Below the pieces are notes generated by a model, which was given only the letters and a program-made list of their open reading frames with translations, was not told where the DNA came from and did not search any database. Shown in pieces: positions 458 through 31,910 of a stretch of 32,000 bases of DNA. The stretch comes from Bdellovibrionales bacterium (lineage in GTDB: Bacteria; Bdellovibrionota; Bdellovibrionia; Bdellovibrionales; UBA1609). How positions within the stretch are numbered: position 1 is the first letter of the stretch; each line of letters starts with the position of its first letter. Made by a program: the position numbers and the translations under genes. Where the stretch lies: positions 1,350,001 through 1,382,000 of the forward strand of contig OY843585.1 of assembly GCA_963692945.1 (NCBI GenBank), given 5' to 3'.

Positions 458-3136
458 ATGTCATTTAAAAAACAATTTTTAATCATTTTCTCTTCCGTAT
501 TCATCCTACTTATTAGTGGACTCATCACCTTTTATAACATCCTGCAAAATGAAAAAGCCATTGCTGAATCTGAACTCAAACGCTACGAATCCTATTTACT
601 TGCGGATGAGCTAAGACAAAGCTCTGATGATTTAACACGAATGGCTAGAACCTATACTGTCACCTCTGATTCTAAATTTAGACAATACTTTGACAAAATT
701 TTAGATATAAGAGATGGCAAAGCCCCTCGCCCTAATAATTACAGTGGCATATATTGGGATTTCGTAACAGCAACAGGTGTTTATCCTTCCTCTCCTGCTG
801 ATAAACAAGTGTCCCTAGAAACCTTAATGAATGAAAAGGACTTTACTAGAGATGAGTTTAATTCTTTAAAAGAATCTAAAAACCGATCTGACTCTCTGGT
901 GAAATTAGAAACCCAAGCCATGAACGCCATGATAGGACTTTACCCCAATGAAGATGGAAATTTTACTATAAGAAAAAAACCGGATTTGATTCTTGCTCAA
1001 AAAATTATGCATAGTCCAGAATATCACAAAATTAAAAAAGAAATTATGGAACCTATGCAGACTTTTTTCCAAGAAGTTGATCAACGTACTCGTCAAACAG
1101 TTTCTTTTTATAGAACAAAAGGCAAGAGATTGAATACTCTTATGCTATCTCTTATAAGTTTAGCCGTATTACTTATTTTTATTTCTTTTGTACTCATTCT
1201 CTTTCAAAAAGGAATAAATCAAAAAAATGACATGGAGGCATGGAAACGAAAGGAAGGATGGAAAAGAAAGTTTTTTTACATTTACACTAGCTGGCCTCTT
1301 TTGACCTTAGTTGTCGTCGCTTTTGCAATCAATTTAAGTTTTTTTTGGTGGACTAAAAAGGTTATTGAAGAACAGGTTCATTCCAACTTAAAAGCAGAAC
1401 TTCAAACCATTGTGAAAACAACTCATAAAGGTTCTATTAACTGGCTTGAAAAAGTAGAACAAGAATTAGAATCTTTTATCACTCTTTCTGCATTTAAAAA
1501 TAATTACATCCAATACAAAAGTAAAAATTTGGTAGATAAAAAGATCTCACATCATCTCTTTAAAAAAGATTTAAATCATTTCATCAAAATACATCAATTC
1601 AAAAACTACTTCCTAATAGATAAAAAAGGAAATATGCTATCTTCTAGCCAACAAAATCTTATTGGGAAAAATATTTCAAAATCTCTCCCTAAAAAAATGA
1701 TTTCTCAATTTAAAAGTCATAAAAAAACGGCTTTGATCTTCCCAGAAAATTTAAAACAAAAAAAAGAATCTCTTTTTAAAAACAACATATTTTTAGCTGG
1801 TAAACTTGTATCAAATAAAAAGGAAGAAGGATTTCTTATTTTAGAGATACCCATAAATGGAGATTTTAGCCAAGTTATACAAAATGGTCGCTTTAAAGAA
1901 TCAGGAGAAAGTTATGCTTTCAATAATGAAGGTTATCTTTTAAGTGAAAGTCGTTTTAACGATCAACTCTATAAAATTGGTCTCTTGTCTCAAGGAACAA
2001 ATAGTTCCCTATCTATTCGCGTTGTTGACCCTGAAACAAATCTCACTCTTCATCCAAATATAAACAATCTGGATTTGTCACAAAAAAAATTAACTCAAAT
2101 GGTGCTAAATGCTTTTCAAAATACAAGAGGCGTCACTGTGAAACCTTATAATGATTACCGAGGTGTGCCTGTTATAGGAGCATGGGTTTGGGATGATGAA
2201 TACAGCATTGGTTTTGCAACAGAAATTGATTCAGAAGAGGCTTTTTTAACTTTGCACTCTTTTGAAAAACAAGCAAACATACAATTAATCGTTAATTTCA
2301 TATTGCTTCTCATCTTAACTATTGTTTTTATCTGGAACAAAACTCTTTTTTCAGAAATGAATGAAAAATTACAATTTGCTTATAAATCTATTAAAGTACA
2401 AACAAATAGAATGGAAGATGAGTTAAAATTAGGTCATCAAATTCAAATGAGCATGGTTCCAAGAGAGTTTCCAAAACATAAAAAGTTTTCTGTTCATGCA
2501 AAATTAAAACCTGCTAGAGAATTAGGTGGTGATTTTTATGATTTCTTTTTATTAAATGAGAATCAACTTTGTATTGTTGTAGGAGATGTTTCAGGAAAGG
2601 GAGTCCCTTCAGCTCTTTTTATGGCTGTCACAAAAACTCTTATACGAACTGTTGCTGCAAAATACAACTGCACAGATAAAATACTTTCTGAGGTCAATAA
2701 GAGCATCACTCTCAATAACCCTTATTTTATGTTTGCCACTATCTTTATCGCTATTTTAAATTTATCTGATGGAGAATGCAGTTACACAAGTGCAGGTCAT
2801 CACAGTTCTTACATCAAAAAAGCAGGGGGCACACTTATAAATTTAAATAAAGTCCATGGACCTGTCACTGGTGCTGTAGAAAATGTTCAATATTCAAAAG
2901 ACACTGTCTTGCTTAAAAAAGAAGATATGTTGATTGCTTACACCGATGGAATCACAGAAGCCACTGACGAAAAAGACAACCTTTATGGAGATGAAAAATT
3001 AGAAACCTTACTTAAACAAAAAACATTTGATTCTTCTGAAGTTCTTATAAATACTATTTTAACAAGTGTTACAGATTTTTCTAAGGAAACAAATCAAAGT
3101 GATGATATAACTTTAATGGTTGTAAAATATTTATAA
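458..3136 (+). CDS. Membrane-bound sensor PP2C-family (SpoIIE/RsbU-type) serine phosphatase
   Basis: 892-aa ORF. N-terminal TM helix plus further hydrophobic segments (about aa 225-250, 275-300, 615-640) delimit two large non-cytoplasmic regions. C-terminal PP2C/SpoIIE motifs: GGDFYDF, VGDVSGKGVPSALFMA, YTDGITEA, DDITLMV. Confidence 0.85.
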   Translation: MSFKKQFLIIFSSVFILLISGLITFYNILQNEKAIAESELKRYESYLLADELRQSSDDLTRMARTYTVTSDSKFRQYFDKILDIRDGKAPRPNNYSGIYWDFVTATGVYPSSPADKQVSLETLMNEKDFTRDEFNSLKESKNRSDSLVKLETQAMNAMIGLYPNEDGNFTIRKKPDLILAQKIMHSPEYHKIKKEIMEPMQTFFQEVDQRTRQTVSFYRTKGKRLNTLMLSLISLAVLLIFISFVLILFQKGINQKNDMEAWKRKEGWKRKFFYIYTSWPLLTLVVVAFAINLSFFWWTKKVIEEQVHSNLKAELQTIVKTTHKGSINWLEKVEQELESFITLSAFKNNYIQYKSKNLVDKKISHHLFKKDLNHFIKIHQFKNYFLIDKKGNMLSSSQQNLIGKNISKSLPKKMISQFKSHKKTALIFPENLKQKKESLFKNNIFLAGKLVSNKKEEGFLILEIPINGDFSQVIQNGRFKESGESYAFNNEGYLLSESRFNDQLYKIGLLSQGTNSSLSIRVVDPETNLTLHPNINNLDLSQKKLTQMVLNAFQNTRGVTVKPYNDYRGVPVIGAWVWDDEYSIGFATEIDSEEAFLTLHSFEKQANIQLIVNFILLLILTIVFIWNKTLFSEMNEKLQFAYKSIKVQTNRMEDELKLGHQIQMSMVPREFPKHKKFSVHAKLKPARELGGDFYDFFLLNENQLCIVVGDVSGKGVPSALFMAVTKTLIRTVAAKYNCTDKILSEVNKSITLNNPYFMFATIFIAILNLSDGECSYTSAGHHSSYIKKAGGTLINLNKVHGPVTGAVENVQYSKDTVLLKKEDMLIAYTDGITEATDEKDNLYGDEKLETLLKQKTFDSSEVLINTILTSVTDFSKETNQSDDITLMVVKYL

Positions 3137-4489: not shown

Positions 4490-5098
4490 ATGGCTAAGAA
4501 AAAGGGGACTAAGAAGAAGTCCACTAAAAAGAAAGTAACTAAAAAGACAGTCACTAAAAAGAAAGGGACTAAGAAGAAGTCCACTAAAAAGAAAGTAACT
4601 AAAAAGAAGTCCACTAAGAAAAAGGGGACTAAGAAAGTAACTAAAAAGAAATCCACTAAGAAAAAGGGGACTAAGAAGAAAGCAACTAAAAAGAAGTCCA
4701 CTAAGAAAAAGGGGACTAAAAAGACAGTAACCAAAAAGAAAGGGACTAAGAAGAAAGCCACTCAAAAGACAGTAACCAAAAAGAAGTCCATTAAGAAAAC
4801 CGTTTCAAAAAAAGATTCCCCAAAAAAAGAAGCTCAATCCACTCCTGGTCTCATTGAAACGCCTCTAACAGAAAATCTCTCACCATCTAAAGTTTCACTG
4901 ACAAATCAAAAAGAAAAACTATCTGAAAATATGGATTTTATGGATGATGAGGGAACCTTTGAATCTCTTGGAAGTGAAAATGATTACTCTCCTGAAGATG
5001 ATGAGGAAAGTAGCAGTTTTGACAACCCGTTTGATGACGATCCATTTGATAGCCTAGAAGAAGAAAGCGATGATGAAGATGGAGACAATTTCTTTTGA
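4490..5098 (+). CDS. Lysine-repeat histone-H1-like (putative nucleoid-associated) protein with acidic C-terminal tail
   Basis: 202-aa ORF with strong SD (aaggag at 4476-4481). Roughly the first 105 aa are KKKxT pentapeptides. The last ~60 aa are D/E-rich (DNPFDDDPFDSLEEESDDEDGDNFF). A strong terminator follows. Confidence 0.7.
   Translation: MAKKKGTKKKSTKKKVTKKTVTKKKGTKKKSTKKKVTKKKSTKKKGTKKVTKKKSTKKKGTKKKATKKKSTKKKGTKKTVTKKKGTKKKATQKTVTKKKSIKKTVSKKDSPKKEAQSTPGLIETPLTENLSPSKVSLTNQKEKLSENMDFMDDEGTFESLGSENDYSPEDDEESSSFDNPFDDDPFDSLEEESDDEDGDNFF
4496..4798 (+). repeat. In-frame tandem 15-nt (aag-aar-aag-nnn-act) coding repeats, about 20 units
   Basis: Directly visible periodic aagaagaagtccact / aagaaaaaggggact / aaaaagaaagtaact units. 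They also generate the two antisense shadow ORFs at 4469-4765. Confidence 0.85.
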
Positions 5099-20520: not shown

Positions 20521-21222
20521 ATGAGTCAAGAAAACTTAAACAAAGCCATAGAACTCACAAAAAAAAATCAACCCAATGTTGCTGTTGTTTTTGACTTGGA
20601 CTCCACTTTATTTTGCATGAAATATAGGACACAAGCCATTATTAAAGATTATATTAAAAAAGACCATCCTCCTGCTTTGAAAAAACAACTTCAAAATATT
20701 AAAGTCACAGAAAAAGATTGGTCTGTCAGAGAGATTCTCAAAAGACATCGTTTAGACCAAGAAAGAGAACTTTTAATTCAGCTAGAAACTTTTTGGAGAG
20801 ATTCTTTTTTCAGAAATGACTACCTTCATCATGACCAGCCCTATAATAAAAGCATTCAGTTTGTGAAGCATTTGGATCAATTAGGTGGAACTGTTTTTTA
20901 TTTAACAGCGAGAAACAAACTTCATATGGAAGAGGGAACTTTAAAGACTCTTCAAAAATACGATTGCCCCTTAAAAACAAAAGAACATCTTATATTGAAA
21001 TCCAATAAAGAAGAACAGGATGCTGAATACAAAAAAGAAAAGTTACAAAAGTTGTCTCAGCAATTTCAAACCATTTTGTTTTTTGAGAATGAACCCGTGG
21101 TTTTAAATCTCATAGACCAAACTTTACAAAACATTCATTTGTTTTGGATAGACAGCACTCACTCCAGACAACAAGAACCTCCGAAAAAAGCCTTACCTAT
21201 TTCTATAGAATATGAGTTTTGA
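20521..21222 (+). CDS. HAD-superfamily hydrolase
   Basis: 233 aa. Motif I VVFDLDSTLF (DxDxT). Later YLTARN and FFENEP segments fit HAD motifs II to IV. Confidence 0.65.
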   Translation: MSQENLNKAIELTKKNQPNVAVVFDLDSTLFCMKYRTQAIIKDYIKKDHPPALKKQLQNIKVTEKDWSVREILKRHRLDQERELLIQLETFWRDSFFRNDYLHHDQPYNKSIQFVKHLDQLGGTVFYLTARNKLHMEEGTLKTLQKYDCPLKTKEHLILKSNKEEQDAEYKKEKLQKLSQQFQTILFFENEPVVLNLIDQTLQNIHLFWIDSTHSRQQEPPKKALPISIEYEF

Positions 21223-21345
21223 AATTCTCCTATTGGATTTTTGAAGTTCTCCTATTGGATTTTTGAAATTCTCCTATATGAGTTTTGAAATTCATCTCTT
21301 GGATTTTTGAAGTTCTCCTATATGAGTTTTGAAATTCCTATTGAT
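21126..21345 (+). repeat. Left direct repeat of the hip-like insert (last 97 bp of the HAD gene + 5 bp), continuing into an array of ~22-bp tandem units
   Basis: 21126-21227 equals 23174-23275 (102 bp, 1 mismatch). 21211-21345 is about 6 units of tat(a)tgagttttgaaattc / tattggatttttgaagttctcc. Confidence 0.9.
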
Positions 21346-21356
21346 AGTTTAAGTAA

Positions 21357-21761
21357 TCAATTTTTAGAGTTTTTAGAGTTATATTTTTTTTCATACTCTT
21401 TGTCAGTAGAAAATATATAGCTAGATAAAGGACTTTTTTCACTTAACCTGTTCAAAATTTCTATAAAATCTTGTTGTGGCAAAGATTTATAAATCTCACT
21501 TATATTGGGTCTATTTTTATCAGGCAATCTTGCACGAAAAAATGAGTGAAGAGATGTTGCTTCATGATCTTCCAATCCTTCTATTTTTCGATCACCTTTG
21601 GTATATTTAAAAATATATTTACCGGTTTTGTAAGTTAATTCTCCAACTAAAACAATAGATTTTCCATTAGTCGCTTCTTTATCATAAAAATATACAAATA
21701 AAGTCTTTTCAGAAGACTTATTTATAAATGAATTCAACAAATTATTTTTCTTTTCAGACAT
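21357..21761 (-). CDS. HipS-like protein (stand-alone HipA N-terminal subdomain homologue)
   Basis: 134 aa. VLVGELTYKTGKYIFKYT and SFFRARLPD resemble the E. coli HipA N-terminus (RVGELT...HTFKY...FFDNLLPD, recalled from memory). Its start is 1 nt after the stop of the upstream kinase gene. Confidence 0.6.
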   Translation of the reverse strand: MSEKKNNLLNSFINKSSEKTLFVYFYDKEATNGKSIVLVGELTYKTGKYIFKYTKGDRKIEGLEDHEATSLHSFFRARLPDKNRPNISEIYKSLPQQDFIEILNRLSEKSPLSSYIFSTDKEYEKKYNSKNSKN

Positions 21762-21762
21762 T

Positions 21763-23145
21763 TTATAAACCTAATATTTTATTCTTTCTTATCTTAAGTA
21801 CTTGACTAATTCTAACAATTCTGATGGGAGAAATCAAGTTTCTATATTTTTTTGTCAAATTTTCAATATCCAATAGATTTAACCTATGAACGAAATGCTT
21901 AAAAAGAACTGGATTGTTTTTTCTTATATACTGAACCACAGAAAAATGACTTTCATTAAGATTATTTTGAACAGTTAAAAGAGGTTTTGAATTTTCTACA
22001 TACTTTAATAGATTTTTTCTATCTTCATATTTAAAAATTAACTCATAAATATTCTCATTCCAAAACAAACCATGTCCTGTATCAAATAACGGTGTAAAAT
22101 ATATATCTTTAGTTTCATTTGATTGTTTTTTTAAAACTAATCCCCAATTCTCATGATGCCTATCTTGATGTCCCAATAAACAATCAACTAATAACATAAG
22201 ATGAAAATTATCCATATTTTTCTTTCTTTTCATTAAAGTAATAGATTGTTTTTTAAGATACTTTTCTATTGATTCTTCTATTTTTTCTATGGTATAGAAC
22301 TGTCTTTGCTCTTTTCTATGCTTTGGTGGAGTTTCCTCACCTGAATCTTGAAAAATTTCTAGTCCATGAATCAATCTATAATCATATTTTGAATTTTTAA
22401 AAAAAGTAAATATCGTAGAGCAGAGAGATATCCGATCTTTATATATTACTAACCAACATTTTGCAGCTTTTGTAAAGCAACTCGCAATATCAGTCATTAT
22501 AATTTCTGTAACAAGTTCTTTGAATCCATGATTATTCCTATTTTCTGTTTCTTTTGGAAATTTAATAAGAAACTTTGCATCTCTTGATCTAAGAATAAAC
22601 TTCTCAGCTTCCCCTAGAAGTGATTCACTTTCTTTATCTAAAAATTTTAAATGATTTTTATCTTTAATTTTTTTTAAAACATGAGAGCCTGCAAACTCTA
22701 AATATAACCATTTCTGATGGTTCCTTATAATTCTTACAGCTGATGATGAAATTTCATTCTGTTTAATTTTTTCTTTTATCTTTTTCTCTTTTTTTTCTAT
22801 AATTTTTAATTGTTCTTTACTACCTTCATTTTTTGAAACTTCTTCTCTTTCTATTTTTAGAGTTTTTAACTCTTTTTGAAATTTATCATTACAAACTAAA
22901 CAAGAGTAGTTAGGTATAGCAACTTTTTCTTGAAATTTATAATTAGCAATTGCATCTTTTATATGTGAAGACACATGATCTAAAATAAGCACATTTGTTT
23001 TTGTATGACGAACTCTTGCTTCACATCTATTACATTTTATATCTCTAATCATAATATATTTATATTGTATCATTAAGAATCTTTTTTTGTAATTTCTCTT
23101 GCAATAAACTTTCCATGTTTTGAATCCAGCAACAAAATGAGCCAT
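21763..23145 (-). CDS. HipA/HipT-like serine/threonine kinase core with an N-terminal CxxC...CxxC (zinc-ribbon-like) + coiled-coil extension
   Basis: 460 aa. LLGHQDRHHENWG...TPLFDTGHG matches the HipA_C catalytic pattern (HipA: GATDGHAKNFS...TPFYD, recalled from memory). Candidate Gly-rich loop EFAGSHVLKK near aa 150. Cys38/41 and Cys82/85. K/E-rich helix at aa 95-135. The true start may be an internal Met. Confidence 0.7.
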   Translation of the reverse strand: MAHFVAGFKTWKVYCKRNYKKRFLMIQYKYIMIRDIKCNRCEARVRHTKTNVLILDHVSSHIKDAIANYKFQEKVAIPNYSCLVCNDKFQKELKTLKIEREEVSKNEGSKEQLKIIEKKEKKIKEKIKQNEISSSAVRIIRNHQKWLYLEFAGSHVLKKIKDKNHLKFLDKESESLLGEAEKFILRSRDAKFLIKFPKETENRNNHGFKELVTEIIMTDIASCFTKAAKCWLVIYKDRISLCSTIFTFFKNSKYDYRLIHGLEIFQDSGEETPPKHRKEQRQFYTIEKIEESIEKYLKKQSITLMKRKKNMDNFHLMLLVDCLLGHQDRHHENWGLVLKKQSNETKDIYFTPLFDTGHGLFWNENIYELIFKYEDRKNLLKYVENSKPLLTVQNNLNESHFSVVQYIRKNNPVLFKHFVHRLNLLDIENLTKKYRNLISPIRIVRISQVLKIRKNKILGL

Positions 23146-23426: not shown

Positions 23427-23921
23427 ATGATTATGCAAAAAATTATTTTTTTTCTAATTGTTATTTTGTTAGCACCACTCTCAACGGCTAGTGACAAACA
23501 AACATCAATGACTAATGAACTAACTTTAATTCGGCAAGCTCGTGTTCTTATATATATATCACCTATTACTTTTTCTAGCAGAACTGTTAATCTAAATTCA
23601 TGCTCCAATGAAGCTCCTGACATACATATCCAGCTTATCAAAACTCATAAAGGTTGGAAGAAAACATTAGCTAAGCTAGGTCTTGCACATAATTTTTTTC
23701 AGTTCAAACTCTCTGCCAACCCACAAACTGTAAAAGAAGTCGTTTGGGAATTTTCAAAAGAACAATATTTTGGAAGAGAAAATATTGAGGTAAGTGAAAA
23801 AAATGTATTGGTGAATGTATGGCAAAAATTTTCTCCAACTGTTTATCTCGTTTGTAACGATGATACATTACATACGATTGAGCTCTTGATTGACCCAGAA
23901 GAATACATTACATACGATTGA
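23427..23921 (+). CDS. Secreted protein of unknown function, paralogue 1
   Basis: 164 aa. Signal peptide MIMQKIIFFLIVILLAPLSTASD. Good SD. 87% identical to paralogue 2. Confidence 0.75.
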   Translation: MIMQKIIFFLIVILLAPLSTASDKQTSMTNELTLIRQARVLIYISPITFSSRTVNLNSCSNEAPDIHIQLIKTHKGWKKTLAKLGLAHNFFQFKLSANPQTVKEVVWEFSKEQYFGRENIEVSEKNVLVNVWQKFSPTVYLVCNDDTLHTIELLIDPEEYITYD

Positions 23922-24065: not shown

Positions 24066-24560
24066 ATGATTATCCAAAAAATTATTTTTTTTCTAATTGT
24101 TATTTTGTTAGCACCACTCTCAACGGCTAGTGACAAACAAACATCAATGACGAATGAACTAACTTTAATTCAGCAATCTCGCTATCTTATATATACATCA
24201 CTTATTACTTTTCCTAGAAGAACTGTTAATCTAAATTCATGCTCCAATGAAGCTCCTGACATACATATCCAGCTTATCAAAACCCATAAAGGTTGGAAGA
24301 AAGCATTATCTAAGGTAGGTCTTTTATATAATTTTTTTCAGTTCAAACTCTCTGCCAACCCACAAACTGTAAAAGAAGTCGTTTGGGAATTTTCAAAAGA
24401 ACAATATTTTGGAAGAGAAAATGTTGAGGTAAGTGAAAAAAATGTATTGGTGAATGTATGGCAAAAATTTTTTACAACTGTTTATCTCGTTTGTAACGAT
24501 GATACAAAACATACGATTGAGCTCTTGATTGACCCAGAAGAACATATTATACAACAATAG
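24066..24560 (+). CDS. Secreted protein of unknown function, paralogue 2
   Basis: 164 aa with the same signal peptide. Tandem duplicate of 23427-23921. Confidence 0.75.
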   Translation: MIIQKIIFFLIVILLAPLSTASDKQTSMTNELTLIQQSRYLIYTSLITFPRRTVNLNSCSNEAPDIHIQLIKTHKGWKKALSKVGLLYNFFQFKLSANPQTVKEVVWEFSKEQYFGRENVEVSEKNVLVNVWQKFFTTVYLVCNDDTKHTIELLIDPEEHIIQQ

Positions 24561-24841: not shown

Positions 24842-25168
24842 TTATTTCCTATCAATTTCATCTAAAAGAATTTCATTGATAACACTTTGATAACCTATCT
24901 TTCTTTTTTTAGCTTCTTTTTTAACAAAAGAGACAACTTGAGGATGAAGACGAATAGAGGTAGGTTTATATTTCTCAGCTTTTGGTTTTAAAGGCCTTCC
25001 TCTTAAAGGTCTTTTCTTTTTTAACTTCTTTTCTATAGCCCTATGAGCAGACATCACTTCCGCTTTTGTTATCTTCCTTGCATTTTTAAACAGGAAGATT
25101 TTGATTTTAGCCTTAGATTTTGCTTTCTTCATACGTCCTCCTTTCTTTTTGATTCGCTTTTCTGGCAC
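24842..25168 (-). CDS. brnA: BrnA-family (CopG/RHH-type) antitoxin
   Basis: 108 aa. LRGRPLKPKAEKYKPTSIRLHPQVVSFVKKEAKKRKIGYQSVINEILL fits the BrnA pattern (GRP...K..vSIRL...vl..fk....gYQt.iN). The track start is GTG at 25168; an ATG at 25132 is an alternative. Confidence 0.8.
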   Translation of the reverse strand: MPEKRIKKKGGRMKKAKSKAKIKIFLFKNARKITKAEVMSAHRAIEKKLKKKRPLRGRPLKPKAEKYKPTSIRLHPQVVSFVKKEAKKRKIGYQSVINEILLDEIDRK

Positions 25169-25434: not shown

Positions 25435-25545
25435 GATCATTCTGGCATTTATTTCATCAAGTAAAATCTTCAATCTTTTTTGCAATAAAAAATTACCAAT
25501 ATTTAGCATCCTGTTGAGTGGTTTTTAGAAGATCTCAAATGAGCC

Positions 25546-25722
25546 TCATGATTTTTTAAGTTTTTTTAGCCTAGTTAAAAAGGCTTTTTTTTTAAAGCAG
25601 AGGAACTCCTCACCTTTTTTTAAACTTCTTTGCTTGAATGTATTTCTTAGCTTTTGAAAAACTCTTGTAACTTTTTTGGTTAAATTTGAAAGCCCAAAGC
25701 CCAATGCTTTCGTTTTTTTAAG
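25546..25722 (+). repeat. Modular intergenic repeat, copy D (modules Y then X)
   Basis: Y (25558-25678) has hairpin agcct/aggct + T9 and near-palindrome gaggaactcctc + T7. X (25679-25719) has hairpin gaaagc/gctttc + T7, with loop ccaaagcccaat. It overlaps the dinD stop. Confidence 0.85.
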
Positions 25723-26569
25723 AATCTTTTTTATTAAAATCACTATATTTTTTAAAAGATTTTTTCTTATCAGATTTAAGTTTTCTTTCTATTTTTTTAA
25801 CATCTTCTTCTGGTGCCAAGCTTTCAGGTGCAATGCCTCGTTCAATTAAAGTTTTCCTAACGCTTTGATTGTTGGTGATATGTTCATTTGATATTTCCTT
25901 TTCGTTTTCCATCTGATTAGTTTTTGCATTAAAAATTGTAATTTCTGTAGCAAAATCCTTGGCTTTTAAAATAAGAGTTGGAGCAAAATCTGATAGAGCT
26001 CGCCCTTTAGGAACTCTCCACTTTTGTTTCATTTGTTCTGTTGTATAGCTAAACAAAGCTTTATCTCCTTTGGAGCGAATGACTCCAAAGTTTTTATCAC
26101 TTCCTGTTTGTTGAAAAATAACACTTGAAAGCTCTCTTTCTGTGTCTGCTAGTTTTTTTCGAGCTGACACCCTTTCTGATTCTAGTAATTTTTGTTGAAT
26201 GATTTCAAATTTTCTCGTTTGAACAGCAAAATAAGTTTGAGCAAAGGCAATTTTTTCTTTACGAGAATCTCCATTTTGAGCAATAAGATAGCAGGCATAG
26301 CGAGTAAGCATAAGCTCATCTATTGTCTTTTCAGCTCCTTTAGGCATTTTGATCGTTTTCCCGACGTCGGTAAAATGATCGGAGACTTGATGATCTGATA
26401 GCTCACAAGCTGTTTTTGCCCTAGAAATAACATCTTTAAAATTATCCCATTTTTCATAACCTAATAGATGCTGTAAATCACGAGCTAGCCAAAATTCCAC
26501 TCCATTTTCTGTCTGGTTGGCATGAGACTCAAAGTCTTTTGTTAAGGATTGGATAAGTTCGCTTTTCAT
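25718..26569 (-). CDS. dinD: DNA-damage-inducible protein D (DinD) family protein
   Basis: 283 aa. FWLARDLQHLLGYEKWDNFKDVISRAKTACE, LTRYACYLIAQNGD and AQTYFAVQTRK match my memory of E. coli DinD (FWSARELAPLLDYRDWRNF..., LSRYACYLVVQNGD, GQTYFAIQTRR). SD taaggag. Confidence 0.7.
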   Translation of the reverse strand: MKSELIQSLTKDFESHANQTENGVEFWLARDLQHLLGYEKWDNFKDVISRAKTACELSDHQVSDHFTDVGKTIKMPKGAEKTIDELMLTRYACYLIAQNGDSRKEKIAFAQTYFAVQTRKFEIIQQKLLESERVSARKKLADTERELSSVIFQQTGSDKNFGVIRSKGDKALFSYTTEQMKQKWRVPKGRALSDFAPTLILKAKDFATEITIFNAKTNQMENEKEISNEHITNNQSVRKTLIERGIAPESLAPEEDVKKIERKLKSDKKKSFKKYSDFNKKDS

Positions 26570-26806: not shown

Positions 26807-27056
26807 GCATTATTTTTGCAGTATTGTGCAGAGTGATCTTTTCGGAAATCACGAGAATTTGAATGAAATTGAGTGAAACTGCAGGAAAATCAAAGAGCCA
26901 ACTTTGTGGTTGATTTTTGTTGAATTTGAAAGCCCAATGCTTTCGTTTTTTTGTCACTCAAGAGGGGACAAATTCCTCATATTTTTTTAAGTTTTTTTAG
27001 CCTAGTTAAAAAGGCTTTTTTTTTAAAGTAGAGGAACTCCTCACCTTTTTTTAAAT
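26807..27056 (+). repeat. Modular intergenic repeat, copy A (W-X-spacer-Y)
   Basis: W at 26807-26918. X at 26919-26952 (hairpin gaaagc 26928-33 / gctttc 26939-44 + T7). 35-nt spacer. Y at 26988-27056 (agcct 26999-27003 / aggct 27012-16 + T8, then gaggaactcctc + T7). Confidence 0.9.
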
Positions 27057-28830: not shown

Positions 28831-29008
28831 GCATTATTTTTGCAGTGATTGTGCAGAGTGATTTTTTCGGAAATCACGAGAATTTGAATGAAATTGAAGG
28901 AAAACTAAAAGCTAATATCGTGGTTGATTTTTGTTGAATTTGAAAGCTCAAAACTCAAAGCCCAATGCCCAATGCCCAATGCCCAATGCCCAATGCTTTC
29001 GTTTTTTT
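28831..29008 (+). repeat. Modular intergenic repeat, copy B (W-X, X loop expanded)
   Basis: W at 28831-28932. X at 28933-29008, with gcccaat x5 (28960-28994) inside the hairpin loop, then gctttc + T7. Confidence 0.9.
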
Positions 29009-29072
29009 AAGTAGATACTTTGAAATATTGTTTTGGTTTACTTTAGCAAGATGTTATATTTATATATAATTT

Positions 29073-29517: not shown

Positions 29518-31284
29518 TCATAAGATCTCTTTTTTCTTTTTAATAAATTTTCTATAAAATAATGGATAAAATTTACGAAACTCTAAGGGAGTTTCCTTTT
29601 GATAGTTTGTAATATACTTATCATGTAATCGATTCCAAAATTCCCTGTCTGAATTTTTTATAAAACATAAATATCCTTGGATATGTCGAATTTTCTGCTG
29701 ATGCTTGTTTTTTTCATAATCTCTGAGAAGTTTTTTTATATAATTTTTTCTACTTCTTCCTAAAGATATTTTTCCTTCTGGAGTCAGATACAAGCCAGTT
29801 ATTTTTCTTTGACCTTTTTTTGACATATGAAAAGTTTTTTTGTTATTGATTTTTAAATTCAAAGGATAAGGTATTTCTTTTAAAAGATCTTTCACTTTTT
29901 GTTCTAAGACATTTAATTGGTTAGATTTAGAATATGAAAACGTAAGATCATCTCCATATCTTGAATAAGTTATACCTAAATTTTCACTATATTTGAATAT
30001 ATTTTCATCGAAGGAATAAAGAAGAATATTTGATATAACTGGAGAAGTACTAGATCCTATAGGTAGAGGATAATCTTCATTTTTCAAAGAATTATCTTTG
30101 AAAACTATATCACAAATCAACTTTTTATATCCTTTAAAATGATTTTTACTTTCTAAATATTTTAAGAAGTCTGATCTTTTTATAGATGAAAAAAAATTCT
30201 TAAAATCTAATTTTAAAAGAAACTGATTTTTTTGATGTCGTTCTATATTTCTTCTTATACTGTTTTTTTTGATATAAGCTGTTGCAGATGTATGAACAGG
30301 AAAAATATGGTTACAATCTAATATTCTTGTTTTTAATATTTTTTGTAAACTTTTTAGATTCTCATCTGGTTCTTTATAATGCTCTCTTTGAGAATATGAA
30401 AAGCAGTCTGGACTTATAAAATTTTTGATATATTTTAATAGGATTAAATCACTTTCTTCCTCTCTTTCTGTTTGAATAATAGTATGATGTAAAATACTCA
30501 TTTTATTTAATATAGAGCTATCACTTCTTATCAAGCTAAGGTATTTTGTTTGATTGAAATCAGTTTCTTCAACTATAAATTTAAAAGCTTTCAGCATTTT
30601 TAGATGGTTATCTAATTTATCTATGTATTTAGTTAGTTTAGTATCTTTTTTAACCTCTTGATATATTTCCTCTTTAGTTTTCCATTCACATAAAATCCCT
30701 ATAAGAAAAAAATATAGAGATGTTAAATTATTTGTATTTATTTCTATGTTATAATCTGCTTTATTTCTAAAATTAAAAATTTCTTTAAAAACTTTTTCTT
30801 TATGGGATTCATTGCTTTGATCATAGTAAATAATTCTTTCTTTTTCTTTAAGAAATATATCTTCTAATATTGCTTTTTTTATAAATGAGTTTTTTTTACA
30901 ATGTTTTTCATCTACTATAATAAGTAATTTCTTTTTTAACTTAGGATTGCAGAAAAAAGCTCCAGTTTCCACCAGTGCTCCATGACCTTCTAAAAAAATG
31001 GGAATAACTGAAGATAACTCTGCAATTTCCATCTCAAATTCAAATAAGTTATTATATCCAGCATTTTCTTCTTTTAAACATTTTTCCCATAAAGTTTCAA
31101 TTTGCTCTGCTAGGATAATTCTTTTGTCAGAAAAAATATTCTCATCGTCTTTGTTGGTAATGAAAACATCTTTATATGTAGATTTTACATGCTTAAGAAA
31201 TGCATTTCTCATAGAATCTGAACAATTAGAACCGCATAAAAATGCAGTATTAGGCAATCTACCTAAGATATGTTTTTTATTCAT
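29518..31284 (-). CDS. Retron-type reverse transcriptase (C-terminal ~300 aa) fused to a ~290-aa N-terminal Rossmann-like + wHTH-like region
   Basis: 588 aa. RT motifs: SIRRNIERH (retron NAxxH-like), LLKLDFKNFFSSI (motif 1/2), LPIGSSTSPVISNILL (motif 3/4), YSRYGDDLTFS (YxDD), QRKITGLYLTPEGKISLGR (retron VTG-like). The N-terminus has AFLCGSN and PIFLEGHGALVETGAF. Confidence 0.85.
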   Translation of the reverse strand: MNKKHILGRLPNTAFLCGSNCSDSMRNAFLKHVKSTYKDVFITNKDDENIFSDKRIILAEQIETLWEKCLKEENAGYNNLFEFEMEIAELSSVIPIFLEGHGALVETGAFFCNPKLKKKLLIIVDEKHCKKNSFIKKAILEDIFLKEKERIIYYDQSNESHKEKVFKEIFNFRNKADYNIEINTNNLTSLYFFLIGILCEWKTKEEIYQEVKKDTKLTKYIDKLDNHLKMLKAFKFIVEETDFNQTKYLSLIRSDSSILNKMSILHHTIIQTEREEESDLILLKYIKNFISPDCFSYSQREHYKEPDENLKSLQKILKTRILDCNHIFPVHTSATAYIKKNSIRRNIERHQKNQFLLKLDFKNFFSSIKRSDFLKYLESKNHFKGYKKLICDIVFKDNSLKNEDYPLPIGSSTSPVISNILLYSFDENIFKYSENLGITYSRYGDDLTFSYSKSNQLNVLEQKVKDLLKEIPYPLNLKINNKKTFHMSKKGQRKITGLYLTPEGKISLGRSRKNYIKKLLRDYEKNKHQQKIRHIQGYLCFIKNSDREFWNRLHDKYITNYQKETPLEFRKFYPLFYRKFIKKKKEIL

Positions 31285-31297
31285 TTACAAACTCTAT

Positions 31298-31327
31298 AAA
31301 AAATATAAAACCCCTCTTAATAAGGGG
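31298..31327 (-). terminator. Terminator/attenuator-like hairpin immediately upstream of the RT start codon
   Basis: Minus strand reads cccct-tattaag-agggg (31327-31311), followed by ttttatatttttt (31310-31298). The RT ATG is at 31284. Confidence 0.4.
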
Positions 31328-31590
31328 AAGTATATTGAAAACATGAAGTATTTAAAACTGTTTGCAGATATATTCTACCAACACATTAAAAATACTTTAT
31401 TACAAAATACCTGTCAAGATTAGTCGGAAAGTGACAAAAAAGTCAATGACCCTGTGATTGTATCTCTATAGCGATACCTTCTTTTAGATTTTTTTGCTAT
31501 TCTCTATCTTTAATAGATGTTGAAAGAAAGAAGGAAGTCCAAAAATTCCCCTTTTTTTTAATTCATATTTCTAATAGTTATAAGATGATT
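31306..31590 (-). ncRNA. Candidate RT-associated non-coding RNA (retron msr-msd-like) region, boundaries uncertain
   Basis: ~350 nt without a credible ORF upstream of a retron-type RT. Promoter-like TTGAAA-N17-TATGTT (31626-31598, minus). 8-nt inverted pair aaggggaa (31553-31546) / ttcccctt (31329-31322) as a possible a1/a2. These matches are not statistically compelling in AT-rich DNA. Confidence 0.25.
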
Positions 31591-31634: not shown

Positions 31635-31910
31635 GCGTTAATTTTTGCAGTGATTGTGCAGTGATTAGACAGTGATTTTTTCGGAAATCACGAGATTTTG
31701 AATGAAATTGAAGGAAACTGGAGGAAAATCAAAGAGCCAGCTTTGTGGCTGGTTTTGTTGAATTTGAAAGCCCAATGCTTTCGTTTTTTTAAGTTTTTTT
31801 AGGCTAGTTAAAAAGGCTTTTTTTTAAAGCAGAGGAACTCCTCTCTATTTTTAAACTTCTTTGCTTGGATATATTTTTTAGCTTTTAAAAAAGTTATAAA
31901 AGTTTTTCAA
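31635..31910 (+). repeat. Modular intergenic repeat, copy C (W-X-Y)
   Basis: W at 31635-31756 (three cagtgatt boxes). X at 31757-31790 (gaaagc 31766-71 / gctttc 31777-82 + T7). Y at 31791 to about 31910; its first hairpin is broken by aggct in place of agcct. Confidence 0.9.

Follow-up and report, generated by a model that had tools for sequence, protein, structure and literature searches.

Retrons are bacterial anti-phage systems. In the 32,000-nucleotide (nt) stretch of Bdellovibrionales DNA analysed here, referred to as the window (contig OY843585.1, positions 1,350,001 to 1,382,000), one gene unites the toxin-like effector and the reverse transcriptase (RT) of a type II-A retron in a single protein of 588 amino acids (aa). 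It is an intact open reading frame (ORF) with an ATG start at window positions 29518..31284 of the (-) strand, the strand that also carries all of its domains, its promoter and its leader RNA given below. As judged by matches to hidden Markov models (HMMs) and by alignment of homologues, it joins an effector, made of a nucleoside 2-deoxyribosyltransferase-like (NDT-like) domain plus a winged helix-turn-helix (wHTH), to a retron RT. We read its identity and architecture as those of an effector-RT fusion that derives from type II-A and has a leader RNA of its own, with a probability of roughly 0.7; the domain assignments themselves lie far above chance level. The ORF is exactly as an initial annotation had described it, and all of the motifs quoted there fall at the expected residues: AFLCGSN at aa 14-20 and FLEGHGALVETGAF at aa 97-110 in the N-terminal half, and NIERH at aa 346-350, D360 within LDFKNFF, YGDD at aa 443-446 and ITG at aa 495-497 in the RT. 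The same annotation had suggested that both halves be checked with HMMs and PADLOC, and the retron RT model and the NDT_II-A effector model both match.

The proposal that the N-terminal half is an effector of the Sen2/Ec86 class, with a Rossmann-like nucleosidase or NDT-like domain followed by a wHTH, is borne out by HMMs and fold matches alike. NDT_II-A of PADLOC matches aa 9-260 (9e-37) independently of the match to the RT, and the NCBIfam model STM3845_fam, which describes the St85-family effector, scores 109.1 bits against a curated cut-off of 100. When a profile of this half was compared with solved structures, the Ec86 effector was the sole match (4e-20); in the alignment, GALVE106TGAF lies over GSFTE106LGAF, so that E106 falls on E106. 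The structure deposited as PDB 8qbl is the inactive E106A form of the Ec86 effector, i.e. the residue mutated there is the aligned catalytic Glu, and E106 of the window protein (30967-30969) is accordingly the candidate catalytic residue. An alignment of the window protein with 62 diverse stand-alone effectors revealed five residues, R26, E60, E84, E106 and F110, that are invariant in all 63 family members. With an HMM score over the cut-off and this Arg/Glu/Glu/Glu/Phe core, the protein belongs to the STM3845/RcaT family (PF28093, NF038232). The Rossmann-like N-glycosidase/NDT-like domain occupies aa 9-175 (30760..31260; STM3845_fam, NDT_II-A and fold matches). The wHTH is likewise present, yet it spans aa 187-250 (30535..30726) rather than the aa 190-290 first suggested; AlphaFold2 models place in it helices at 187-197, 204-212 and 218-233 and a beta hairpin at 237-250, with a predicted local distance difference test score (pLDDT) of ~90. 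A model of aa 1-295 built on the effector alignment (pLDDT 81, predicted template modelling score 0.78) consists of a Rossmann-like alpha/beta domain and then a three-helix plus beta-hairpin winged helix. Its strong fold matches are only to chains of the Ec86/Eco1 effector (E 3e-8 to 9e-8), and weak ones extend to LOG, PpnN and NDT proteins and to repressors of the MecI/SmtB/MarR type. The N-terminal region is thus predicted to fold like the Ec86 effector, with a Rossmann-like nucleosidase domain preceding a winged helix.

The C-terminal half is a retron-clade RT, as had also been anticipated. The domain, defined by HMMs and motifs, covers aa 304-561 (29602..30375, with YGDD at 29947-29958) and carries NIERH and ITG as its forms of the NAxxH motif and the VTG triplet of retron RTs. 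Pfam RVT_1 matches at aa 307-498 (2.2e-20); RT_II-A (PDLC02939) is the best PADLOC match to the RT (aa 304-561, 6.6e-76), followed by RT_I-A, and the NCBIfam model retron_St85_RT reaches 236.5 bits, just over its cut-off of 235, RT_II-A and St85 being the best models overall. The closest solved RTs are an entry titled just ‘Retron’ (22et), Ec78 and Ec83, at 178-206 bits, with Ec86 at 123 bits. Could this nevertheless be a non-retron defence RT of the Abi, UG/DRT or group II intron-like kind that became fused to a nucleosidase by chance? The models for Drt2, Drt3a and group II do give weak secondary matches that point in that direction, but these reach only 40-56 bits against cut-offs of 200-390. 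With 236-254 bits for the retron models, and with retron RTs as the best solved relatives throughout, such an origin is exceedingly unlikely. D360 and the motif C residues Y443, D445 and D446 are invariant across the fused proteins in spite of identities of 33-59%; polymerisation therefore appears to be still under selection, and the sequences argue for a polymerase activity retained in the fused RT. Between the two halves lies a junction (aa 251-303, 30376..30534) of variable length, assigned at low confidence, which combines C-terminal helices of the effector with a degenerate RT start. The full-length AlphaFold model is poorer than that of the effector half (pLDDT 64), and in it the junction is disordered at aa 253-324.

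The effector-RT fusion is genuine and uncommon, and it occurs only in a few Bdellovibrionales. Effector and RT are kept on one chain in a family of 13 loci, i.e. the window and 12 others, all in Bdellovibrionales metagenome-assembled genomes (MAGs) or on metagenome contigs; every locus that has a title carries a Bdellovibrionales title, and the other loci show 33-59% identity to the window protein. A word-indexed search of 5.8 billion proteins yielded nine other full-length proteins of 587-608 aa and 54-59% identity, as well as a divergent fused protein of 552 aa and 33% identity; several shorter proteins that it also returned probably represent frameshifted copies, stemming from long-read assemblies of low coverage. 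In a scan of one genome per species, five loci were found in ‘Bdellovibrionales bacterium’ MAGs of 1.9-2.9 Mb or fragments thereof, and four additional metagenome contigs complete the family of 13. All fused homologues have the precomputed Pfam architecture PF28093 (STM3845) plus PF00078, and they align collinearly, differing in length at the junction only and sharing the invariant residues of both active sites. How uncommon the arrangement is can be seen from a search with the effector profile among 1.84 billion cluster representatives, which gave 1829 matches: the best 150 of these include only two fused clusters, P0004, which represents the group of the window, and P0015, the others being mostly stand-alone effectors of 280-330 aa plus shorter fragments. 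No further members were found in viral contigs, and a scan of JGI metagenomes gave a single match, of the RT part only, at 35% identity. The sole name that a source attaches to any member is ‘RNA-directed DNA polymerase’.

An error in sequencing or assembly, a recent loss of a stop codon or a pseudogene restricted to this one genome might in principle produce the same picture, the more so as many of the homologous contigs come from low-coverage long-read assemblies and some relatives are split or truncated (the locus L007, and the proteins P0011-P0014). However, 11 of the 12 other loci contain the same uninterrupted ORF of 552-608 aa, three of them on complete MAG chromosomes, and there is the second, divergent cluster; L007 alone is interrupted. 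The comparative data thus refute an artefact, which we regard as very improbable. Two members show signs of decay, L007 by a premature stop after codon 237 (at codon 238; L007 6001-6714) and an altered hairpin 1 of its leader, and L011 by an insertion sequence (IS) with an rve transposase between the leader RNA (1991-2083) and the fused gene (3001). The surroundings of other members contain IS elements, integrases, and toxin-antitoxin or defence genes.

What is conserved along with the ORF? The conserved unit consists of a promoter, a leader RNA of ~87 nt and the ORF: DNA homology between the window and the other loci starts ~100-118 nt 5' of the ATG and ends inside the last ~100 nt of the ORF, short of the stop codon. 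Downstream sequences and genes are unrelated between the family loci, which share no conserved accessory gene; the remark in the initial annotation that no separate effector gene lies nearby in the same orientation thus extends to the whole family, in that there is no conserved one at its loci. A promoter scan identified a sigma-70-type promoter at 31389..31417, with TTGACA (31417-31412), a 17-nt spacer and TATTTT (31394-31389), ending 5 nt ahead of hairpin 1; the -35 and -10 hexamers and their distance to this hairpin are conserved across the homologous loci, unlike other upstream DNA. The leader RNA itself, a candidate retron-derived non-coding RNA (ncRNA), lies at 31298..31384 and is described by a covariance model, R1, which was built from eight copies and finds the element in the window and in 12 of the 12 other loci. 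Expression of the gene together with the 350 nt upstream of it had been suggested, and a co-conserved RNA does exist there, albeit one of only ~87 nt.

The leader opens at the predicted 5' end of the transcript with hairpin 1 (31359..31383; UGUU.GUAGA-AUAUA-UCUGC.AACA), which is like stem-loop 2 (SL2) of an msr. There follows a single-stranded linker (31336..31358) with the motif (A)CAGUUUUAAAUA, near-invariant in alignments A2, A5 and A6, and then variable sequence. Hairpin 2 (31303..31335; AUAUA..CCCC-variable apex-GGGG..UAUAU and a U-rich tail) may be either msd-like or an intrinsic terminator, and its apex varies in length and covaries. When the 12 copies with the highest scores are aligned to the model, 95% of cells pair, compared with 39-67% when the partners are slid, and five pairs change on both sides; compensatory changes in hairpin 1 include U-A to A-U, U-A to C-G and U.G to C-G. 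Because the leader pairs alternate between U.G and C-G, the sense strand is the folded one. Moreover, the first 20 codons show free variation at their synonymous sites, in contrast to the leader, whose hairpin 1 and linker motif are conserved beyond the synonymous sites of the adjacent coding sequence (CDS), which indicates that the leader is under selection of its own.

The leader can be called a retron ncRNA in part only. Its layout resembles the segment of canonical ncRNAs that runs from SL2 over the linker to the msd, and it occupies the position of a type II-A1 ncRNA, with an SL2-like hairpin, a linker and a short msd-like hairpin. The comparison is made most directly with L017, a classical II-A1 locus with abutting effector and RT ORFs (positions 274-1188 and 1188-2138), in which an ncRNA of ~175 nt upstream of the effector comprises a1, the branching G, SL1, SL2, a 24-nt linker, a long msd hairpin and a2; the linker between the two hairpins of the window is ~23 nt. 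R1 aligns to the SL2-to-msd segment of L017, although with E=1.5, which is not significant. The a2 repeat of L017 abuts the effector ATG and covers a Shine-Dalgarno-like AAGGGA (261-276), and folding of a1 with a2 could also mask translation of the toxin gene there. Two other unfused loci with St85-type RTs, L009 and L016, differ in gene order from Sen2-type II-A1 loci, their ncRNAs (2895-3049 and 1739-1914, respectively) lying between the effector and RT genes with a1 overlapping the 3' end of the effector ORF. Their a1/a2 repeats are a perfect 15-16 bp in L009 and 24 nt at 83% complementarity in L016, and their msd hairpins have short 12-bp arms, to which hairpin 2 is comparable in size. In L015, from a Klebsiella phage, the effector stop lies 1 nt from the RT start. 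Given this proximity and the abutting ORFs of L017, simple loss of the stop codon between adjacent effector and RT genes could have given rise to the fusion.

Several observations weigh against a leader that functions as a retron ncRNA, and hence against part of what we favour. No a1/a2 inverted repeats were found in the leader flanks, at the CDS start or elsewhere in the conserved unit, although the same repeat scan recovered the 15-16-bp pair of the positive control L009. When 90 nt upstream of hairpin 1 was searched against 110 nt after hairpin 2, by RNAduplex and by the longest complementary run, the positions of the best candidates were inconsistent between loci and no better than in shuffled sequences. 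Neither is there an invariant G suited to branch priming, since L005 and L007 have U or C in place of the G that bulges from hairpin 1. An adjacent ncRNA with a1/a2 enclosing msr and msd together with a branching G, as expected of a retron, is thus not seen. The leader is only some half as long as canonical II-A1 ncRNAs are (~175 nt in L017; 144 nt in Eco7), and because the promoter ends 5 nt before hairpin 1 there is no room for a1, the branching G and SL1. Hairpin 2 scored as terminator-like in the scan and resembles an ordinary intrinsic terminator. In the protein, the first ~44 residues of a canonical RT are unrecognisable; since homology begins only at about residue 45 of a St85-type RT, the N-terminal RT segment has been lost or has diverged, in parallel with the 5' part of the RNA. 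A search of the window against Rfam gave nothing at gathering thresholds or at E up to 10, a negative that is uninformative as Rfam misses the ncRNA of the L009 control too. Taken together, the ‘one-polypeptide retron’ of the initial annotation holds as far as the fusion is concerned, while a retron in the strict, msDNA-producing (multicopy single-stranded DNA) sense is putative, a1/a2 being undetected in the upstream RNA.

Individual candidate repeats were also examined and rejected. An 8-9-bp pair in the window, TGTTGGTA/TACCAACA (the latter at +124 in the CDS), drives the minimum free energy fold and is absent from all homologues. Placement of a2 within the first codons, as in some canonical relatives, is ruled out by the freely varying synonymous sites. 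An in-gene pair that recurs at +50/+266, GGAGCTAAT/ATTAGCTTC, arises incidentally from the codons for Gly-Ala-Asn and Leu-Ala-Ser, and its pairing is interrupted in the window, L001, L002 and L013, and a 13-bp in-gene pair of L005 is not kept in its sister locus L007. The gene order of L009 and L016 prompted a search for an ncRNA inside the interdomain junction; no repeats were found there, and the region is homologous to effector C-termini.

How, then, should the missing features be explained? One answer is that a canonical ncRNA with a1/a2 and a branching G is present and was overlooked, the repeats being short, rich in wobble pairs or masked by AT-rich sequence. The region has a GC content of 25-30%, which entails a high background of inverted repeats, and the canonical relatives include loci in which a1 or a2 overlaps coding sequence. 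Against this stand the shifting positions of the best complementary stretches, which do not exceed shuffled controls, the free variation of synonymous sites at the CDS start, the lack of space between promoter and hairpin 1 for a1, the branching G and SL1, and the failure of candidates within the CDS to be conserved between sister loci; we therefore consider an overlooked canonical ncRNA quite improbable. A different answer takes the absence at face value and supposes that the protein is real but that msDNA is no longer made, the leader serving as a cis-regulatory attenuator or terminator that limits the toxic fusion and the RT domain as an RNA-binding or regulatory module or as the maker of some other product. 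The absence of a1/a2 and of the branching G, the terminator score of hairpin 2 and the missing or degenerate RT N-terminus would all fit such a scheme. It is harder to reconcile with the invariance of D360, Y443, D445 and D446 and the presence of NIERH and ITG in the window protein, and with the conservation of hairpin 1 and the linker motif above that of synonymous sites in the adjacent CDS, for which a simple terminator has no need. An attenuator is thus doubtful, though by no means negligible.

It is also conceivable, if unlikely, that the family represents a retron lineage without the a1/a2 duplex and branching G, in which the fused effector-RT acts on a minimal two-hairpin RNA, either by a cDNA priming unlike that of retrons or with the RNA itself, instead of msDNA, as antitoxin and sensor. 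The terminator-like hairpin 2 could, for instance, snap back on the linker/hairpin-1 template and offer its 3'-OH as the primer. If true, the family would provide the first case of a retron-clade RT whose priming or sensing chemistry is different, within a module of ~1.9 kb.

Returning to the type II-A-derived fusion with its own leader RNA, a mode of action may be sketched by analogy with Sen2 and Eco1. In Sen2, as outlined in a preprint, the toxin RcaT is bound by the RT, and it is msDNA that enables the antitoxin activity (bioRxiv 10.1101/2020.06.22.160168), a role of RT-RcaT and msDNA that is also described in PMC8632793; in Eco1, RT-msDNA and an N-glycosidase effector assemble as an NAD(P)+-hydrolysing filament (PMC12673091). 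The locus would accordingly be a compact anti-phage module, in which a 588-aa polypeptide of the effector and its cognate clade-1 (St85-like) RT is expressed from its own promoter behind a structured leader RNA of ~87 nt. The RT domain may bind the leader via hairpin 1 and the linker and copy the region of hairpin 2 into a short cDNA, and the nucleic acid, held by wHTH and RT, would keep the covalently tethered nucleosidase inactive. A phage factor that degrades or modifies this nucleic acid could then release the nucleosidase, whose E106-dependent hydrolysis of NAD(P)+ or nucleotides would lead to abortive infection. The fusion would set toxin and antitoxin protein at 1:1 and make the contact between RT and effector intramolecular. 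An msDNA-based switch in the fused system, which rests on this analogy, seems to us to have somewhat less than an even chance.

The fused gene sits in a defence island, a low-GC region (23-30%) that occupies 21-32 kb of the window beside a nuo operon. PADLOC candidates in the island include PDC-S13, PDC-M03A/B and a weak match resembling PDC-M09B/M72B. The PDC-S13 candidate, a single-gene system, is a Bro-N domain protein of 283 aa at 25718-26569 (-) that is matched over its full length at 364 bits. PDC-M03A/B consists of a 460-aa HipA_C/Cap4-nuclease-like protein (21763-23145) and a 134-aa partner (21357-21761), and a BrnA-type antitoxin is encoded at 24842-25168. The island is rich in repeats. 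A pair of 95% identity (21126-21337/23174-23320), with internal 22-nt tandem units at 21210-21337, flanks PDC-M03A/B, and a 300-nt direct repeat, also of 95% identity (23323-23622/23962-24261), gives rise to near-identical 164-aa ORFs (23427-23921 and 24066-24560) that match no family. A composite intergenic repeat of ~150-250 nt occurs in four direct copies (25544-25722, 26832-27055, 28857-29011 and 31671-31907), which contain CAGTGATT repeats, the hairpins GTGATTTTTTCGGAAATCAC and AGCCAGCTTTGTGGCTGG, and a terminator-like GAAAGCCCAATGCTTTC followed by a T-run. These copies bracket the Bro-N/PDC-S13 gene, a 434-aa Gly-zipper protein, and the retron together with a 114-aa ORF, so that the single-gene cassettes look like a cassette array, with no integron integrase adjacent; one copy includes a microsatellite-like (GCCCAAT)n run at 28960-29005 that is expanded relative to the other copies. 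Elsewhere in the window, the segment 458-5098 encodes a SpoIIE-type phosphatase (892 aa) and an anti-sigma-like kinase with HATPase_c_2, part of a partner-switching module, and at 4490-5098 there is a lysine-rich ORF with a weak similarity to the histone-like protein HC2, below the Pfam cut-off.

Why does the arrangement matter? Retrons are viewed as tripartite toxin-antitoxin systems, with an RT that binds the toxin and an msDNA that gives the antitoxin activity, and a covalent toxin-RT chain puts this model to the test, as the contact is constitutive and the nucleic acid must be the sole switch. The chain also suggests a route by which defence systems might become more compact, through loss of the stop codon between neighbouring effector and RT genes, and an NDT-type retron module of ~1.9 kb including its RNA could be useful for mechanistic and engineering work. 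With a1/a2 absent, the family is a good case for asking whether retron-clade RTs work without branch priming, and its restriction to small-genome Bdellovibrionales adds little-studied hosts to retron biology.

Where does the fused system stand among known retrons? As far as can be judged from sequence, it would work most like a type II-A retron, yet it falls for now outside the strict definition of a retron, in that no a1/a2 repeats were detected. The effector is that of type II-A in the Mestre classification (STM3845_fam, NDT_II-A, Ec86-effector fold and wHTH at aa 187-250); the separate effector gene beside the RT gene that completes the tripartite type II-A layout gives way to a single ORF in the window and in 11 of the other 12 loci, that of L007 being split by its stop. 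In that classification, types II-A1, II-A2 and II-A3 all have a separate NDT protein, II-A2 combining it with a wHTH-RT, and the fusions to Toprim, TIR and protease domains are C-terminal (Mestre et al. 2020, PMC7736814). With type II-A1 (Sen2/St85, Vmi1, Vch2, Eco3) the window locus shares the STM3845/RcaT effector family, an RT that scores over the cut-off of the St85 model, the order RNA-effector-RT and a promoter directly 5' of the RNA. It differs in the union of effector and RT in one polypeptide, in an RNA of about half the length that is devoid of a1, branching G, SL1 and a2, and in the first ~44 RT residues being unrecognisable.

Type II-A2 likewise has a portion of its effector joined to the N-terminus of the RT (Mestre et al. 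2020, PMC7736814), so that the idea of a fusion within type II-A is not wholly new. There, however, only the wHTH is fused and the NDT is a separate protein, whereas here NDT, wHTH and RT form one chain; the window locus is therefore not of type II-A2. The PADLOC II-A RT model PDLC02940 (477 positions), whose extra N-terminal length is taken to represent the wHTH-RT form, matches only at model positions 229-456, its RT part. What is new is the full effector fused N-terminally to a II-A RT, and no description of the complete NDT-wHTH-RT chain was found in the full-text literature searched, outside which lies the supplementary table of Mestre et al. Retron-Eco1 (Ec86, type II-A3) has the same effector fold and catalytic Glu and, by analogy, probably the same mode of action, with a complex of RT and nucleic acid restraining an NAD(P)+-hydrolysing N-glycosidase. 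Its RT belongs to another clade (123 bits, compared with ~200 bits for clade-1 RTs), its proteins are separate and its ncRNA is canonical, and its filament needs an N-terminal RT helix that has no counterpart in the window protein. Finally, types I-C (Eco2/Ec67, RT-Toprim), XI (RT-protease) and XII (RT-TIR) also pair an ncRNA with one RT/effector protein, but their effectors are C-terminal, come from other enzyme families and are joined to clade 8 RTs, and the corresponding fusion-type models match the window protein through the RT part only and below cut-off; its effector, by contrast, is N-terminal and NDT-like.

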